Assembly (NCBI RefSeq): GCF_002571385.2
Contig: NW_019218106.1
Location: 10,972 to 74,971 of the forward strand
Source of the DNA: Stylophora pistillata
Lineage: Eukaryota
Direction: 5' to 3'
Length of the DNA: 64,000 nt
The position numbers were made by a program, and so were the translations under genes. The notes beneath the pieces were generated by a model, which was given only the letters and a program-made list of their open reading frames with translations, was not told the origin of the DNA and did no database searches. Of this stretch, positions 1 through 45,900 are shown in pieces. Position 1 is the stretch's first letter, and every line of letters begins with the position of its first letter.

Positions 1-451
1 AATAACTAAAATCAACCAATCAAATTGCTCTATTGCCGGTCCAATATTCTCTAAGTATTGGACCGGGCACTGTCCCGAATGGTCCCGAATGATACCGTAC
101 TTGTGTCCCTTTGAACTTCAGTCGTATAATAAATCTCTTATTAACCAAGCTTGCTCGGGGCCGTACTGGGAGAATATCGGCCCGAGGTCTTGACAGTACG
201 GACCGAGCGTAGCGAGGTCCGTACAAAAAAGACCGAGGGCCGATATTCTCCCAGTACGGCCCCGAGCAAGCTTGGTTAATAAGAGATTTATTATACGACT
301 GAAGTTCAAAGGGACACAAGTACGGTATCATTCGGGACCATTCGGGACAGTGCCCGGTCCAATACTTAGAGAATATTGGACCGGCAATAGAGCAATTTGA
401 TTGGTTGATTTTAGTTATTAGCCCTCTGACTGCCCGAGTCGTGTAATAATA
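1..451. mobile_element. Long palindromic (fold-back) non-autonomous element, left end outside window
   Basis: Bases 1-182 are the reverse complement of about 238-419, with an apex loop at 205-215. The right end reads ...cccgagtcgtgtaataat. A second, one-armed copy lies at 34535-34850. Confidence 0.85.
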
Positions 452-2899: not shown

Positions 2900-3147
2900 A
2901 TACCAGATTCAGGGAAAACTTAGACGTTCCTTGAGTTTCTGATATCGTTACTGGAAATTTTACGTTTTCATTTTTAAGATCACATAAAGCTTCTGCCACG
3001 TCTTGCGCACTCTCAAGAAATGTCGACCTTCCAATGTTCATTACGAGTCCAAGTACTACCATGTGCAAGATGGTAGTAGAGTCCACTCGCCAGAACCTTG
3101 TCCGCTGGAATAGGATTGCGGAAATTTGTAGGTTGTCTCCATAGTCG
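2900..3147 (-). pseudogene. PIF/Harbinger (HARBI1-like) transposase fragment, frameshifted
   Basis: Minus-strand translation RQPTNFRNPIPADKVLASGLY... followed by IGRSTFLESAQDVAEAL...VKFP, typical of the Harbinger transposase HTH region. Confidence 0.6.
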
Positions 3148-3395
3148 ATGCTGCAAGAGTTAACTAGTCACCAAACCAAACCAAACCTTGGCTCTTATTG
3201 GAGTACAGATCCTGCTCTTAGCTCTCCATTTTTCTCTAGCGTAATGCCCAGGGATCGATTCCTCCAGATTCTACGATACTTACATTTTGCAGACAACACC
3301 CAGGCACCCATCGCTGACTCAGCTGATTACAATAATATGTACAAAATTCAGCCCTTCTTGAACTTGGTAATACCTAAGTTTCAGGAAGTGTATAA
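3148..3395 (+). pseudogene. piggyBac (PGBD4-like) transposase fragment
   Basis: YWSTDP..SPFFSSVMPRDRFLQILRYLHFADN...YKIQPFL is the conserved piggyBac block. It is cut at TAA (3393-3395) by a Harbinger end. Confidence 0.8.
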
Positions 3396-3593
3396 GGCCC
3401 CGTCCACACTAATCCGTTTTCAAACGAAAAAGATTTGCGTCCACACTTATCGTTTTCGTATCATTTTCGCCCGTCCACACTACAACGCCGTATCCGTTTT
3501 GAAAACGCTTTTATACCCTCAGTGCGCATGCTCAAATGAACTCGACGCATGCGCATTTCAATATATCGGTCCGCGAAATTGGCGCCATTCTTG

Positions 3594-3659
3594 ATTCTTT
3601 GTTGTTGAGTGTTGTTGTGGTTTAGAATTCTTTGTTGTTGAGTGTTGTTGTGGTTTAGA
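3594..3659. repeat. Perfect 33-bp tandem duplication
   Basis: attctttgttgttgagtgttgttgtggtttaga occurs twice in tandem. Confidence 0.95.
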
Positions 3660-3685
3660 ATTCTTTGATATTTTCCTTCTAAACG

Positions 3686-4384
3686 ATGCCAAGAACAGCT
3701 GGAAAGCAACCAACACCTAAAACAGACTGTTTCACATGGACTGCTGATGAAGTACAGCTACTTCTGAAAGGCACAAACAAATACACAGTGCAGAAAAGCA
3801 CCCAGAGTGTAGACTGGGAGTCAGTCCAGTCGAAGTATGGCGACATCTTGGATATGTTTCAAGCAGAGTATCCTAACAGCGAAAATGCGGCTGCTTTAGG
3901 CAAGGAATACCCTCATAAACCGGAGGATATAACTAAGGCTACACTATCCACGAAGTTAAAGGCAGTTCGCAAGAAGTTTAGACAAAAAGTCGACTCGGGA
4001 AGGAAGAGTGGACATGGCCACGTGGTCTTGCTGTATTACGAGCTCTGTCAAGAAATATGGGGTGGCTCGCCAGCGACAAATAGGATAAGTTCCGGCTTAG
4101 AACCAAGTACATTAATTGAGGATATTGATGTAGATGGTGCTACTGATACCCCTGCAACGGTAGACGTAAATGATGATGAAAGCGAAAGCCTAGAAGATGA
4201 AGAGGGACCACAAAATGATGCAACTCCGACCAGTAGTACCATCAAGCATTGGAGGGAGCTACTTCATTCGAAGCTGAAGTGCTACAAACAAATGAGAAAA
4301 GTGGAGGACAAAACTCTTTGTAGATATCCAAATGCTGAGTATTGCCGAGGAAGAACTCGAAATAAAGAAGAAACTGATCACTAG
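3686..4384 (+). pseudogene. Harbinger-associated Myb/SANT-like (trihelix) DNA-binding protein, degenerate at the 3' end
   Basis: FTWTADEVQLLL...DWESVQSKY...KLKAVRKKFRQ..DSGRKSGHG...YELCQEIWGGSPAT followed by an acidic tail. A probable frameshift lies near the C-terminus. Confidence 0.75.
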
Positions 4385-37918: not shown

Positions 37919-39897
37919 TAGTGGCTAAACCGTAGTTGTGAAGATAATTGTGAGCTGAATCTTGGATTTTTTCCCCCGATGTTGAACAGAAGGTGCGGCT
38001 TACATAGCAAACTTTGCTGTGCTCTAAATCTTACTTTTTTATGTTGTTTTACCTTTATAGTACTTCAACCGCCAGCTTCTCAGCATCCTTCACCAGCACC
38101 CACTTCTCAATCACATATTCCCACCGCAGCTTCTTCTTGGAATCAAACCCAGACTCGCCCTCAGGGAAATGACCTTGATATTCTTTGCAACACTGGAGAC
38201 ATCTTACCTCATGTGGATGGGCAAGAAGTGGAAGAGATCTTCATGGATATTGAAAGAGAAATGAACATTGGACCGCTGAGTTTTCTGGATTCTGAAATGG
38301 ACAACAACGTGGCCAACGTGCAAGAGCAGTTTCCACCACAGAGTGATAATTCTGTGTCAGGTCATGGTGTAGGCTTTCAAGCAAGCCAACATCCAATGAG
38401 TGTTTACAATCAAGGCACCACTAATCAGGGGTACAATCCTGGCCCAACACACTTTCAGAGTGGAGGATCGGGTTATCAACGGGGCCCTCAGAATCACATG
38501 GATGGCTTTACTAATTCTGTTGTTCCAGGTCAAATCGGTTTCAACCACAATAATACATTCCCGAGAGGGAACGAATTCGATCTAGATGATCTTCCCAGGG
38601 AGAGACGCAGACCTCCAAGTCCACGGGTAGACCCAATGAAACAACAGCAGAAGTGGGAAGAAGATGAAAAGCTCGGTGCTACAGCAACAATATCGCCAGT
38701 ACTATATGCCAACTTGGAACACATTAACTTGAAGCAGGAGTATCCAGGTAAGTGACGCTTAGCAGAAACGGTAAAAGAGTGAACTAAATTCAGGTTTCCT
38801 GAGGTGTGGTTTGCAGATAGGATAGAAGTACAAATTTCGACGTGGATTTACTATTGGCTTGGTCTTAATGTGTCGTCTTAAATAGATATTCCACATATAA
38901 TTGTCATTTCATCCAGTTGCTATACGTTAATTTTACATGTTATTTTTAGGTATTTTCACTTAATTGGAACCTCATTAAACTCCTAGCTTGATTTATCAGG
39001 CAGAATTCCAAAACAGATTTTGCGGTAGACAATCGATTTAATTAGCTGTTGTCTTTAATTTCAAATAGAGTTTGGTGATTATAGGATTATAGAGTGTGGT
39101 GTACTTACAGGCGTTATCAACTCAGCGGTTGTGATGTTATATAACATTGTCCCCAATAAAAGCCGGTTTTTTTTTTCTTTATTGATCATAATTACATGTC
39201 ACTTTTCAATTTGTCGTAGACTGGCCCAACAGATACAGAGCAATTGCAAGATTATGGCGAAAACTTTCAGTTGAGCAAAGGGAACCGTACAGGGTAAGTT
39301 TAATTTCCTTATCATGAAAAGTTCTGCCATTACAATGTTTTGATGAACATCTCTCAGTGTTGGTTGGCTATATTTTTATTTGGTCGGACCTTAGTTGTAG
39401 TAACTCTTATCAATGCGTCTTAATTTTGTCGTGAAATACACAGTGCACAATTGAAACGCAGTCTCATGTACGGTAATCTGTTTGCAGTTAAAGGCCAGGG
39501 ACAACCGTGTTAGACTGAAAGACCAGGGGAAAAAGGTATGTGTTCATTTTTAAGTGTAATGGTATCAAGGCGTTACATTTTTCACCTCTGTACGGGTTTA
39601 AATTTTTCTAAACGAAGATTACGGCAGATTAAAAATGTGTCATTTTGAATAAATAATCAAAAATAGAACTGGACGTACAAGTTAGAGGGAACGTAATTCA
39701 AATGCTGAGAAGAATAGTGTTTTAAAAAAAGGGATATGAAGTCGTCGAGCTAGCCACTTCTGTCTGCAGTGTGATTGTAAACAAAAAACATAATTTCATT
39801 TACCTTTCTTTCTTTCCCCCGCAGCTGATTGCAAAAAACGAGGAGAAAGCAAAGTTAGAGTCCCAGAAGGCGTTGCAAATAAAGCAGCAGCAGCAGC

Positions 39898-39928
<31 letters not shown>

Positions 39929-42900
39929 GGAGCTGCAGTTACAGGAACAACAACAGCAAATGCAGCACCAGCAGTTAGAACAACAACAACAGCAAATGCT
40001 ACAGCACCAACAGCAACAACAACAGGCTCTACAGCTACCCTCTCAATCTTCACAAGGTCAATCTCTACTGCATCAGCATGATCAGCGTACAGCGTCTACA
40101 TCTCTTTGTCCAGTCACAGAAAGTGGAATGCTTCCAGTAAATAGTGTCATGCCCGTTCCCCTCACACCTAGCACACCTGCAAGGTCAATTACACCTGTGA
40201 CACCTGGCACCCCGGGCCCCTTGACCCCAACCACGCCCACCACACCCACGTTCAGTCAAGTGATGGGTCACCCCCCAATTGGACCTCCGATTCCAGCAGC
40301 TATAGCAGGTCATCAGTCTTCAGGCAAAACTACGAGTAACAAAGGTAAAAAAAGTAAAGAGGAAAAAGAGAGAGAGAAAGAACTGAGAAAACAGAGACTT
40401 CGCATTCAACAAGAGCAGGAGCGACAGTGGAAAATCCTCCAGCAGAAGAGAGCCTTGGAGCAACAGCGTCAACAACAGCAACAGCAACAAGAGAATGTCT
40501 TGCTTCGACAGGAACTCAAAAAGCAACAACAAGCAAAGGGAACTAAAGTACCTGAAGAACAGAAGAAAAAGCGTTTATCCAAAAGTGGAAGACGAGCCTC
40601 CTCGCAGGCATCTAAGGCTACTGACAAATCTGGAAGTGGCTCACATGACTCACCGCATCTTCAAAATAGCATGGCACCCCCTGAAGGCGCTGACAGTAGA
40701 GTAGAAGAACAAGTATTACCTGCTGGCCCTTCATTTTCATCAGCACCCAGAGCTAATGCAAACGCTCTTGCATCTACCAGTCAATATCAGCATGAATCGT
40801 CTCTCGACTTTTTGACTCCTTACGATGCACAACGCAATGGATTGTTAGGAGAAAGGCAGAGTGATGGAAGTGCGAATTCTAGTCATCATTCCTCAAACTC
40901 AAATGCAGGTGACATCCATTCTGCACAGGCAGGTGCCAACCACCAGTTTCAGAGATCTACGCTTTGGGAGAAGGAACATGGGGAAGAGGCAGTTCATCAT
41001 ACTGATGGATCAATCTGGCAAAAGTCACAGAGCTGCAGTGAACTTCAAGACCAGAAACAGACTAATCGCTCGTTAAGTTTAAACCAAGTTTCACAGGCAC
41101 ATGAAGGTTCTAAGCATAATTTGTGGGGTTGTGACAACTCGCAACCTGAGACGATTCAAGATCAGACGGGAAGAGAAAACGCTGAAGGCAAGGTTCTATT
41201 TCTTGAACAAAACACAGGACCTTTACAAGAAGGGGTCCGAGAAGAACAGAATTCCCAAAATAACTATGGTGCCCACGAGCAAGTCGTGTTTAACAATGAA
41301 AGACAACAATGGTCCCATCCTCATGTACCTGCAATTCCTTCAACTCAAGCACCAATGCTAAATCAACAATTGAGTTCTGATAGTGGACAAATTATGCACC
41401 AACCAGCTGTATCTGACGCCTTGCAGGCTGTTCCTTTTTCAGTACCACAGCAAACGGCATTAAAACCCACGGAGCAACATCTGCAGCAAGCTATGGAATT
41501 GCAACAACCTCCTCAACAAATTCCTGTTATGCATTGGCAAGAGGAGCTGTCACAAGTTCGAGCCCAGGTGGCTGCTGCTCATGACCTTCATCCCTCTCAT
41601 TCTGTTGCTCCTTCCTCAGCTCTTGCACCTCCTCCAGTTGCACCACCCCCACCCCCATTGACATCATCCCAGCAACCGCCTACCATTCCACAACAGCCAT
41701 ACGAACTGAGTTCTGGATGGCTACATCAGGGCCAGTTACCTTCTCAGGTACAGACACAACCAATGGTAACATTCCCACAGCCACCTCAACCCCACCAGGT
41801 ACATGGTCCTACAACTACGCAAGTGGCAATGCCTCAGACACCATTTCAACCTCCACCTCAGATCCCTATCCAGCTGCCACCCAATCATCCCACCAACCAA
41901 CCCATGTCAAATCAACCTCAGGATAGTCAATTGCAACAGCCACAACAACAGCAAGATGTGGTTCAGCGACAACAAAGAGACCAACTCATAAGAGCCCAAC
42001 AGCAACAGTTTTTTCAGATAATTCAGCAGCAACAGGCGATTCAACATCAGCAACAGGCGATTCAACATCAGCAACAGCAGCAACAGCAGCAACAGCAACA
42101 GAATGCTGCTATCCAACCAGGATTTGCAAGGGCACGGTTCAATACAGCTATCAACACCAAAGATCTGCCTGAAATTGACACCGAGGAGGAACACCAGGAA
42201 CGGCTTCGTTTTCTCTATCGTCAACGCCAAGCACAAAAACAGCAACAGATGCAGGTGCAAGCTCAACTGATGCACCAAGCTTGGATTCAACAGCAACTTG
42301 CTGCTGGGGGTAGTCAAGGAGTGGTTCCACCAGGTGTACTGGCAATGGATTCATCCAACCCTCAAATGTTGCAACAGTTTGCTCAACAAATGCGTCCTCA
42401 AATGCCGGACATGACTCAGCAGCAATTGCTTGCTGAATATCAAAGGAGAATGACGCAGCGGCAAGACATAGGCCAGCAGACCGTTCAATATGATAAGGTA
42501 TTGCAGGAGTTCCAACAACAGCAAGGGATTCCTGGTGGAAGTGCTCATGCTGTAGGCCCTTTCATTGAAGTCCCTCATCAGAGATTTGGCTTGAGACAGC
42601 CAACCCCTATAGTCCAACCAGGTTTGAAGCCTATAATGCCATATGGGGGACTTGATGGACAGTTCATCGGTCAACAGCAGCAACTGTACAAGATACAGTT
42701 GCAGCAACAAATGATGATGCAGCAGCAGAAGAAGGAAACATCCAATAAGAGCACCCTTCGAGCAAGCCCTGTTACAGGAAAGGCTAATGCAGAGGAAAGT
42801 GGTGGTGAAGTCAGTGGGAATGTTCGTGATGATAAGCTAAATGGCACAACTGTGTTGTCAGGTAACACCAACTCTGAAGCTGAAAAACTCCCTGATAAAT

Positions 42901-45900
42901 CTGTGGAATCCGGAACAGAAAATGAAAAGCAACTGAGTGAAGGAAAAGGTAACAGTACAAGTGGAACAAACCAGGTGGCCAGTGATTCTGGCAAGACATC
43001 CTCTGAGTTTGTAAAGGGCGAGAAGTTAGAGAACGCTATATCTGAGAAAGACCATTGTAGTGGTGACCATAAAAGCGACCAGGATAGTAGAGAGGTTAAT
43101 GATGCGAGAGGAACAAACAGCTATGAAGAAGAGACTGGCACCCCAAATTCTAAAGATGTAAGTGCACATATACCAGGGAGGTCAGATGATCCTAACACCA
43201 CAACTGTACAAAGGGAAGAACTATGTAATGTTACCTGTCGGGAAAAGAAAGCTAGTAAAGACGAAGATGTTGAAAAGGACCTTGCCATGGCCAATGTAAA
43301 TTGTGATAGCCCTTCAGATGAAATATGCTCAAATGTCGCAAATGAAAATAAGTATGAAGGTGGAAATGAATCGGAAAGATGCTCTGAAGAACGAGAGACT
43401 TGTATTGAACCACAGGGGGAGCAGGCGTCAGGTTCTCAGGCTCTTGATTCAAACAAATTGGATGGAGCTGCAAACTTGAAAGAAGTGTCGCGTCAAGAAG
43501 GGAAGCGCCAATCTAAACCTGAACCTTTGCTTGAAACCAACCAGGCACCTATTCAGCCACACAACGCAACCAGTCAGGTAACTGCAGTACCTCCTCCTCA
43601 GCCCCAGCATTTCCTCTATCAACAGCAATTTTTGTCATTACAGCAGTCCTTTGTACAAATGCAACAGCAAAGACAAGTTCTTGTTCAGCAGTACCAACAG
43701 TTGCAACAGCAACTGCACCAGGCTGGAGGACAAGATCCAGTACTGGCAGGTCAGGTAATGACTGTCCAATCGCAAGGACAAGTTCTCCAACAACAGATGT
43801 TACAAGCCTGGCAACAAATGCAACTTATACAACAGCAGGTGCAGCTTGGGGGAACAGCACATCAGCAGCTTGCAATTCAGCAACAGCCACAGGCCCAACA
43901 GCAACCACTTGTGGCTCCCCAATGGCCTTCAGGAGTCCCACAAGGACATTCAGTGGCAACACAAGCGGGAGTGTTTCCTGTGAGGCCCAGTGTTATGGCA
44001 GTCCAGGGCCCTTTACAGCCGGGCATGCCACTTGTAGAGAAGGTAGGAGCTGTATGCTTTTAACAGAAACTAACTTCCCATCACATTTCTTAGCAAGACT
44101 CAGGAAACCTCATAATGGCCGATTTTTCTTTTTTAACTAGTTATACCAATGATTAACACGTTTCCTTTTTGTTCAGGGACTTGAACAGAAACCAAAATCA
44201 AGGTCGAGGTCCAAAAGCAGGGACACGCCTCAACCATCTCCAATTAGACAACAAAGCCCTGCTATCGACTGGCAGCCACCAAAGGGAAAACAGTCTAAAA
44301 CAAGACAGAGGAAACCCAAAAAGTCAGAACCGCAAGCCAATGATCCAGATCTTGAACGTCAACAGCAAGTGCTTCAGCAACAAATATACCAACAGATGGA
44401 ACAGCGGCATCGGTTGATGAAGCAGAAACAGGGGGTTTTCGTTGAACAGGGTCAACAGCCAGTTGTGCAACCTCCAATGCCATTACAACAACCTGGGCAA
44501 CAGCCTCAAGTATCTCTTCCGCAAAACATGGTTGAACACCCAGGAATAATAGCACAGCCATCCATTGACGGCACCCATCCAATGCGACCTCTGTCGCACA
44601 CACCAGAGCTTTCAAAAGGGCAACGGCCTGATTCACAAGTTAATTTCCCACCTGGTACACCAGGACCTCAGATGCCTCTTCCATCCAGTACTCAGATTCC
44701 TCCGGGATATCCCCACGGTGCAGAACAAAGTTCTTTTTCACAAAGGTTCCCAACACCTGAGCATTATCTTCAGCAATTTGGTCAACACCCCAACCATCAA
44801 AGGCAACCACAAGTTCATTATGTTGCTGAAGCAAACAACCCTTTCAGTGACCAGTTTCAAGGGCTACACAGCAAAGGCAGGGGCAGAGGAGGGGCAAAGA
44901 AAACGTCTGGCTCTAGAAAGCCCGGAAAACCTCGCAGCAAGAAGACAGCAGAAGTTGAAGCTCCTTCAGAGGCGGATCTCCAACAACAGCAGCAGACTAA
45001 TCCTACTTTATCGGAGCAAAATCTCCAGGGCCTTGGCCTTACCCCATCTCAGCAAGCACAGGCTATAAAGCTGGAAAGGCTGGAATCGGAAGAATCGGTT
45101 CCTCAAACACCCGACGCTCAACAAAGTGGCTTATATACCGGCTCCACTGGTGCTGGTGAAGGTGAATGTCCCGATGGTAAAAGTGAAAGTCATGGTGCTG
45201 TAGGGCAAGAGGTGAAAGAGAAACCATCAGAGGAAGTATTTGCGGAGCAGTGTATTGAAGCGAACTCACTTTCAGCCACTGGCGAGAATAGTAATTGTCA
45301 TGCGCCATCTTTAAGAAATGAAGAAAGTGATGCCAACTTGTCCAACGAGAAGACGAATACTACAGAGAACGAAATTCCAGCTTCCGTACAAAACGATTCT
45401 AGTGAGTCTGCTGATGAGAGTAAACAACCGTGTGATGGGACTGGGTTGGAAGCATTACAAAAACTTGAATCGATGGTTGCAGACATGGCTAACGAGGAGG
45501 AAGCCTGTAAGGAGCTGGAAAAGCAGAGTGAATTGGAAAGAATCCACTTGCCTTTAGATGACGATGTTTATGACCCGGAAATGGACAAGATCTACGAGAG
45601 AGACTTCATGGTAGAAGAAACTCAGTTTGAGCAGTGTTTGTTATCTCCAATTAAAGCTGTGGACAATGGTTCTCAGGCAAATTCTGTAGCATCGCTGGAG
45701 TGCCACGAAGAAAGCCTCATTTCGCCTTTGCTTGAGGAAACGGAAAGACGTAAGGAACGTCAAGCGTTTTTCGCTGAATCTGCTTCCAGTGAAACAGCGG
45801 TCGCAGATAACAAAATTGCGGATTTGGGAAAACCTGAAGTAGGAAAAGAACATCAGACCGAAGAAGCAGAGCTGACTCCTTCAGAATCAAGTAAACATGC

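Follow-up and report, generated by a model that had tools for sequence, protein, structure and literature searches.

The window analysed here, a stretch of 64,000 nucleotides of Stylophora pistillata (contig NW_019218106.1, positions 10,972 to 74,971), holds two copies of a hairpin element whose apexes are mutually inverted. When both are oriented by their asymmetric bulge, the copy at 1–451 has TCGCTACGCTC (205–215, which read GAGCGTAGCGA on the + strand) and the copy at 34534–34849 has GAGCGCAGCGA at 34768–34778, its reverse complement except for one base. The assembled sequence also bears out a near-perfect palindrome of at least 182 bp per arm at the window start, with 1–183 pairing with 419–237 at zero mismatches. 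An earlier note, made from the letters alone, had read these as flip and flop forms produced by self-primed extension from a 3' hairpin and hairpin transfer, as at parvoviral or poxviral termini, and had named a passive template-switch micro-inversion as the alternative. The question is which process flips the apex, and whether the hairpin has a function. In our main reading, to which we give a probability of roughly 70%, both copies derive from a tyrosine-recombinase Crypton and have no genes, and the tip flip is likely left by a DNA polymerase that switches template at a hairpin, whose predicted folding is better on the bottom strand. Coordinates are given in Table 1.

Table 1. Features of the two hairpin-element copies, in window coordinates.
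Feature	Position	Strand	Remarks
Copy with standard apex	158–449	-	Runs from the 5' end at 449 through the hairpin to a 26-bp perfect stem; normal 3' end missing
Standard apex	205–215	-	TCGC-TAC-GCTC; 458 exact matches, either loop base allowed; the majority orientation
26-bp stretch	158–183	+	Pairs perfectly with 237–262; the switch into the duplicated arm is located here
Duplicated arm	1–157	+	263–419 reversed, identical; incomplete, adjoining a run of N
One-armed non-autonomous Crypton copy	34534–34849	+	TTATTAC... to ...AATAAGATATAT; apex inverted
5' 147 bp	34534–34680	+	Common to the start of the autonomous Crypton, upstream of the recombinase ORF
3' ~172 bp	34678–34849	+	Common to the end of the autonomous Crypton; contains the ~158-nt imperfect hairpin
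5' terminal 13 nt	34534–34546	+	Complementary to the internal arm 34683–34695 (one G.T pair on the - strand)
Internal half of predicted folded recombination site	34683–34709	+	Arm AGTCGTATAATAA, 5-nt spacer ATCTC, arm TTATTAACC (predicted fold)
3' end	34834–34849	+	Arm GGTTAATAA and 7-nt spacer GATATAT, found at the 3' junction in 148/159 copies (at most one mismatch)
Inverted apex	34768–34778	+	GAGC-GCA-GCGA flanked by 9-bp perfect stems; minority state, 43 exact matches

The element family and its Crypton partner

Both window copies belong to a young family of about 316 bp in Stylophora pistillata. A genome DNA search with the element gave 1937 candidate places, 40 of which were scored, and exact 35-nt apex patterns identified at least 549 genomic copies, a floor that counts exact matches only. 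For age and lineage we sampled 82 of the 458 standard, 41 of the 43 inverted and all 48 partial copies, leaving out 26 of the 171 (3 duplicates, the rest partial or more than 10% diverged). The median divergence from the majority sequence is about 2.5%, and linked changes at positions 71 and 83 tell two subfamilies apart (81/145 and 46/145 copies, with 18/145 others). The copy at 34534–34849 had been described as ending in a short terminal hairpin; this hairpin is about 158 nt long.

The partner was sought among genomic loci encoding DUF3504 (91 matches, best 30 loci examined). Two of these 30 have the element's first 147 bp directly upstream of the ORF, and a search with the partner ORF then identified L252, where the 5' part, the ORF and the 3' hairpin lie within one unit of about 2.4 kb. 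The 3' part also lies downstream of the ORF in L254, L256/259, L257 and L262, and both ends flank a DUF3504 ORF in L252, L254 and L256/259, with 86–99% identity. Since both ends flank a Crypton ORF, the short element arose by internal deletion from a ~2.4-kb Crypton of the same genome that encodes a DUF3504 tyrosine recombinase, of which it keeps 147 bp on the 5' side and ~172 bp on the 3' side; derivatives that share both ends with a Crypton have been described (PMC3212892).

The partner ORF matches DUF3504 at 69.9 bits (cut-off 29.7), with QRICH1 also above cut-off and a weak PF00589 match across the C-terminal part. DUF3504, QRICH1 and Phage_integrase were the sole domains above or near cut-off in the three ORF pieces searched, which showed no reverse transcriptase or further domain, and the nearest solved structure to the recombinase is QRICH1. 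The motifs HFGFRA, NHSVRK, SGH and YKS, which we take to supply the R, HxxR, H and Y of an R-H-R-Y catalytic set, are present in L231 and L252. Both of these copies have stops or frameshifts, and no complete open ORF was found among the partner copies examined, all of which are broken or ended by a contig edge. The flanks of 159 copies contain no terminal inverted repeats, long direct repeats or target duplication, just a loose TTAT/DTAT likeness at the ends. Judged by its shared ends, by the recombinase domain and motifs and by the absent repeats, the ~316-bp element is a non-autonomous Crypton derivative, probably of the CryptonA type. LTR- or Penelope-type terminal repeats were considered as a source of paired copies and rejected, as the pairs are gap-edge duplicates or independent insertions with differing flanks.

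Several other features of the window were recorded. Positions 713–860 hold a short high-copy repeat with a small hairpin and high contig depth, and similar sequence follows the element in L034. Positions 961–1877 form a unit whose bounding short inverted repeats end in TTAA; it contains a THAP-like ORF (1267–1530), and we assume it to be Kolobok-like. ORF pieces at 3145–3594 and 3683–4384 presumably represent a piggyBac transposase fragment and a Myb/SANT-like Harbinger partner protein, and 39866–44400 is a long glutamine-coding, CAA/CAG-rich region.

Apex states and their polarity

Genome-wide, exact 35-nt matches comprise 458 standard apexes, 43 fully inverted ones (7.8% of 549), 48 left-converted ones (GAGC-NNN-GCTC) and 0 right-converted ones (TCGC-NNN-GCGA). 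Backwards-sequence controls of the same patterns had 0 genomic matches, compared with 458 and 43. The left-converted loops are TGC in 26 cases, GCA in 16 and others in 6, with one pair being a gap duplicate; 30 of the 48 retain a TG- loop and 18 have the inverted-type loop. Every apex change thus begins at the left TC and reaches a variable distance, and the flip is limited to the 11-nt tip, with the bulges staying in place in nearly all inverted copies. An outer-bulge search gave 17 matches: 6 left-only changes at the outer TC, 1 whole inner inversion, 1 window copy, 1 right-arm conversion and 8 point changes. The inversion of the whole inner segment was seen only in L093/L154, one one-armed copy among the 17. 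Conversions at the bulge are rarer than at the apex and go in both directions, so strict polarity is a property of the apex only. Eleven loci have a symmetrised bulge, four of them multi-switch patchworks at the same hairpin (L338, L342, L354 and L358).

The polarity recurs in a second Crypton family (126 matches), where we found 5 left-starting events, 2 of them full inversions, and no right-only change among the 100 matches listed. Its full-inversion rate is about 1.5%, against 7.8% in the ~316-bp family. In the latter, the apex is rearranged in 91/549 copies, several-fold commoner than the ~2.5% change at an average site.

The earlier note held that confinement of the inverted apex to one rare sub-lineage would speak against flip/flop; the inverted apex instead occurs in both subfamilies (25 and 7 of 33 copies, with 1 mixed) and is scattered on a tree of 103 copies, with 28 changes compared with 28.0 for shuffled labels, although this tree is nearly star-like and carries little signal. 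Inverted copies have derived alleles in common slightly above chance (P = 0.016). They are not overrepresented among the copies of lowest divergence: about 3 differences or fewer are seen in 6/33 inverted and 15/70 standard ones. Variant copies do not stand out clearly as older than standard ones (means of 7.25 and 6.68 differences), where accumulation with age would predict 9.29 (interval -0.58 to 4.62), an expectation that drops to 6.8 without three outliers. Among the loci compared, a search for one site in two apex states gave two shared-flank pairs only, each with the same apex in both members. One rearranged hairpin, with the left arm converted and the tip deleted, is identical at two sites with different flanks (L331 and L337), which suggests that rearranged copies can still move.

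The four apex counts (458, 43, 48 and 0) and the rare outer flips together form a spectrum of template switching between imperfect inverted repeats. Switching between strands inverts spacers, and spacer inversion requires such an inter-strand switch (PMC5453318). The flip/flop pattern is a known mutational process, with no sign of virus-like replication, and the recurrent flips in both subfamilies, the partial states and the one-sided polarity favour the micro-inversion that the earlier note had kept as its second choice. We propose that the bottom strand of the element would fold, with G.T pairs, tandem GA/GA and a GCA loop, and that a polymerase synthesising the top strand would stall at this hairpin and switch to the opposite strand at GGACC/GGTCC. 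Its return could come after 2–4 nt (leaving a left-only change), after the loop, or after the whole 11-nt tip (leaving a full inversion). For the left-only class, a fold-back of the nascent bottom strand might serve as well. With its hundreds of near-identical hairpins, the family amounts to an experiment, replicated by nature, on how strand biases template switching in the germ line of an animal.

We think it unlikely that the flips arise during transposition, in complementary-strand synthesis across the folded element, instead of in ordinary chromosome replication. Variant copies being about as diverged as standard ones would fit such an origin, as would the excess of apex rearrangement over average-site change and the rearranged variant shared by L331 and L337. 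Full inversion, on the other hand, requires both strands at a fork (PMC5453318), and the flip rate is unequal between the two families, so that flipping is no obligatory step of transposition.

Two-armed copies and the palindrome at the window start

A genome search with the palindrome (40 of 1987 candidates scored) identified two further two-armed copies, L282 and L285, which are free of N and complete at both ends. Their arms bear opposite subfamily markers and differ at 9 and 19, respectively, of the first 160 positions, with the crossover in the inner stem of L282 and in the outer stem of L285. Arms from different subfamilies indicate fusions of two copies, not self-primed fold-backs. We take the two-armed forms to be rare by-products in which two copies of opposite orientation have fused, and the simplest origin would be the collapse of a tail-to-tail pair. 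Such a pair exists at L190:1279–1901, where a copy in opposite orientation sits exactly at another's 3' junction, whose spacer stays on the inserted copy's 5' side. A head-to-head pair, L112 (840–2423), was considered as a parvovirus-like unit and rejected, as it encloses unrelated sequence; the sequence around its two copies presumably belongs to a DIRS-type retroelement.

Hairpin transfer, in which a hairpin-ended intermediate primes its own extension and is nicked to give flip, flop and two-armed forms, would account for the presence of both apex orientations and of two-armed copies, for inversions that recur in both subfamilies without clear dependence on age, and for the identical arms of the 1–451 copy. 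We nevertheless regard it as highly improbable. It leads one to expect roughly equal numbers of flip and flop, and we counted 43 inverted against 458 standard apexes (43/549 of all states), with no enrichment in the least diverged copies. It does not predict 48 partial states with strict polarity, a flip of the 11-nt tip only, or bulges left unflipped in nearly all inverted copies (the exception being L093/L154). A molecule closed at the apex would also lose the right arm's mismatches, which are retained, and both of the gap-free two-armed copies (2/2) combine different subfamilies. The partner encodes a tyrosine recombinase, and we found no Rep/HUH or viral protein there.

The 1–451 copy itself calls for a separate judgement. 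It had been taken to have its whole arm duplicated, yet the left arm fails to reach the element start by about 30 nt, and a run of N longer than 8 kb lies immediately before window base 1. An N run lies within about 100 bp of 30/171 sampled copies, and the assembly has frequent duplicates at gap edges (L008, L009, L034/L035, L093). A perfect stem longer than 21 bp occurs in 0/145 sampled one-armed copies, compared with 26 bp here. In contigs of four runs (3 samples, 2 studies), flank sequence is joined to the 5' end of the element (423 or 441 to 741), and among the contig pieces listed none crosses the fold-back junction, 7876 further pieces falling outside that list. Raw reads of four runs from 2026 that bear the same species label had zero depth on the unique flank 451–690 at 98% likeness and are uninformative for this copy.

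On this evidence, we put the chance that the palindrome is an assembly artefact, a fold-back at a gap edge, at about even. A real intramolecular fold-back, left by a template switch without return, is possible but less probable: the two arms have two rare alleles in common, each found in 1/145 other copies, long-tract conversions occur in the gap-free copies L165 and L338, and a genuine palindrome might itself produce a gap. Against it stand the stop at the N run before the element start, the frequency of gap-edge duplicates, and the 0 differences in 183 pairs at a site occupied in three samples of two studies; the unique 26-bp perfect stem would also allow a short-overlap gap filler to change strand. 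We consider a fusion of two copies homogenised in assembly to be unlikely.

Two further observations were made at this end of the window. Contigs from three samples differ by one letter from the assembly near the element's 5' end (position inferred as 423–440), a weak hint that the assembled repeat is not faithful to the locus. All four contig runs also contain a joint from 449 to 628, at about 0.6 of single-copy depth, which may come from another allele or another locus.

Element ends and a predicted folded recombination site

The 159 copies with both junctions present define the ends and the target. Left flanks have an AATAA-like stretch at -11 to -7 followed by 6 free bases, and right flanks read D-T-A-T; the target is palindromic, and there is no spacer homology. 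The spacer GATATAT (at most one mismatch) lies at the 5' junction in 4/159 copies, compared with the 148/159 that have it at the 3' junction. Head-to-tail arrays show joined ends, ATAA-GATATAT-TTAT (L300, beside a gap). In L300/L301, three near-identical copies lie head to tail near an N run with circle-like junctions, which are either real or made by the assembly.

Directly below the hairpin lies a stretch to which the element's 5'-terminal 13 nt are complementary, and with its ends joined the strand is accordingly predicted to fold as arm, 7/5-nt bubble and arm. The predicted energy of this fold is -69.3 kcal/mol for the bottom strand and -64.3 kcal/mol for the top strand; the bottom strand has G.T where the top has A.C, two GA/GA pairs in tandem and a GCA loop. 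For the apex alone the values are -9.4 and -9.0, from a folding model that has no term for sheared G.A pairs. Such pairs give extra stability. Two further, sequence-unrelated Crypton families are predicted to fold likewise, with about 24 nt of end pairing and the same 7/5 spacers. Beyond these, a third family is mirrored, and a fourth (F6) showed no such site in its end-joined fold. In 18 Crypton loci we counted 8 occurrences of a GA-stem-GNA-stem-GA motif (5 antisense and 3 sense, some perhaps separate insertions), against 0 in reversed sequence, and one copy of another family (L233) has a GA/GCA tip on the sense strand. Two related architectures were seen in passing. Family F3 (L236, L237, L240) has its hairpin upstream of the ORF, a mirror arrangement with strongly differing tips, one with a duplicated inverted tip. 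The window itself holds, at 2190–2360, a second, diverged hairpin element of the same design, with 29 nt at 93% to the hairpin base and a decayed GA/GAA tip on the - strand.

On either strand, tyrosine recombinases cleave where the spacer begins at its 5' side. With that polarity, a crossover that always falls at the spacer's right edge would point to exchange of the bottom strand only, and the 159 junctions fit such an exchange. We propose that the 3' end would fold as a site with a 7/5-nt bubble for the recombinase to use, that one bottom-strand exchange would release a single-stranded circle, and that one further exchange would insert it at AATA-N8-TAT-like targets, with host replication completing the insertion. 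Such use by the recombinase is the likely reason for the hairpin's existence. The earlier note's functional hairpin intermediate survives in part: the hairpin is likely a working single-strand structure and recombinase substrate, and its proposed role as replication primer is not supported. We lean somewhat towards a general form of this model, in which animal Cryptons transpose as folded single-stranded circles by one tyrosine-recombinase strand exchange, as a eukaryotic counterpart of integrons and CTX, and in which the one-sided tip scars would be a genomic record of bottom-strand folding in vivo, possibly in the element's own second-strand synthesis.

The published model for animal Cryptons, for which no terminal repeats are reported, proposes circular DNA by analogy (PMC3212892). 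Under a conventional double-stranded circle, the hairpin would just bind protein or extrude as a cruciform and the strand asymmetry would be incidental, and the end-joined junction can indeed be read as an ordinary arm-spacer-arm site. If two strands were exchanged with unmatched spacers, however, roughly half of the copies should carry either the element's spacer on their 5' side or, on their 3' side, a spacer taken from the flank; the first was found in 4/159 and the second in at most 11/159. Moreover, three families unrelated in sequence share the pairing of the 5' end with the hairpin base. We therefore find a double-stranded circle rather doubtful.

Crypton movement has so far been proposed by analogy only. 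In this family the ends are defined, 159 insertions give a target motif, the partner enzyme is named and the substrates are of oligonucleotide size, so that single- and double-strand models would be separable in one in vitro assay. Our analysis adds the partner of the ~316-bp family, a count of apex states that shows their polarity in two families, and the origin of two-armed forms from two copies.

At parvoviral and poxviral termini, flip and flop are near equimolar and the terminal palindrome inverts as a block. The element resembles them in having an imperfect terminal hairpin in two reverse-complement states, and differs in that inversion is at 7.8%, involves the tip only and is accompanied by partial states. 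Quasi-palindrome template switching (Loytynoja and Goldman 2017, PMC5453318) likewise homogenises arms and inverts spacers between short inverted repeats; here, hundreds of copies of one substrate give a counted spectrum with strict one-sided tip polarity. CryptonA and its non-autonomous derivatives (Kojima and Jurka 2011, PMC3212892; PMC5753468 for the Eulor5/6 link; Glomhopper, PMC13465315) share with our element a single DUF3504-type tyrosine recombinase with its catalytic motifs, the lack of terminal inverted repeats and target duplication, and an abundant derivative with both ends in common. Our element differs from these described Cryptons in having, as its 3' end, a long hairpin that its 5' end completes. 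Such an end structure is absent from the Crypton descriptions in the available text of these three papers ("hairpin" and "palindrom" occur 0 times in that of PMC3212892, "hairpin" 0 times in that of PMC13465315), and a literature search covering titles and the starts of abstracts, with Repbase Reports, subscription reviews and supplements outside its scope, returned no folded single-strand Crypton mechanism.

The SE elements (PMC9345347) are partly alike, as a tyrosine recombinase copies out one strand and the carried spacer is mostly at one junction after insertion; they differ in being bacterial, in having four genes and, as that study found for SE-6945, in lacking an attC-like inverted repeat at the ends. 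Closest in design are integron attC (PMC5027507, PMC4792948) and CTX phage attP (named in PMC9345347), where a tyrosine recombinase acts on a folded single strand that presents a two-arm site with an unpaired spacer. As predicted here, one strand is favoured and the junctions are compatible with one strand exchange. In contrast to these sites, our element is eukaryotic and self-mobile, uses many loose targets and completes its site with its own 5' end, the likeness lying in the predicted fold and the junctions.
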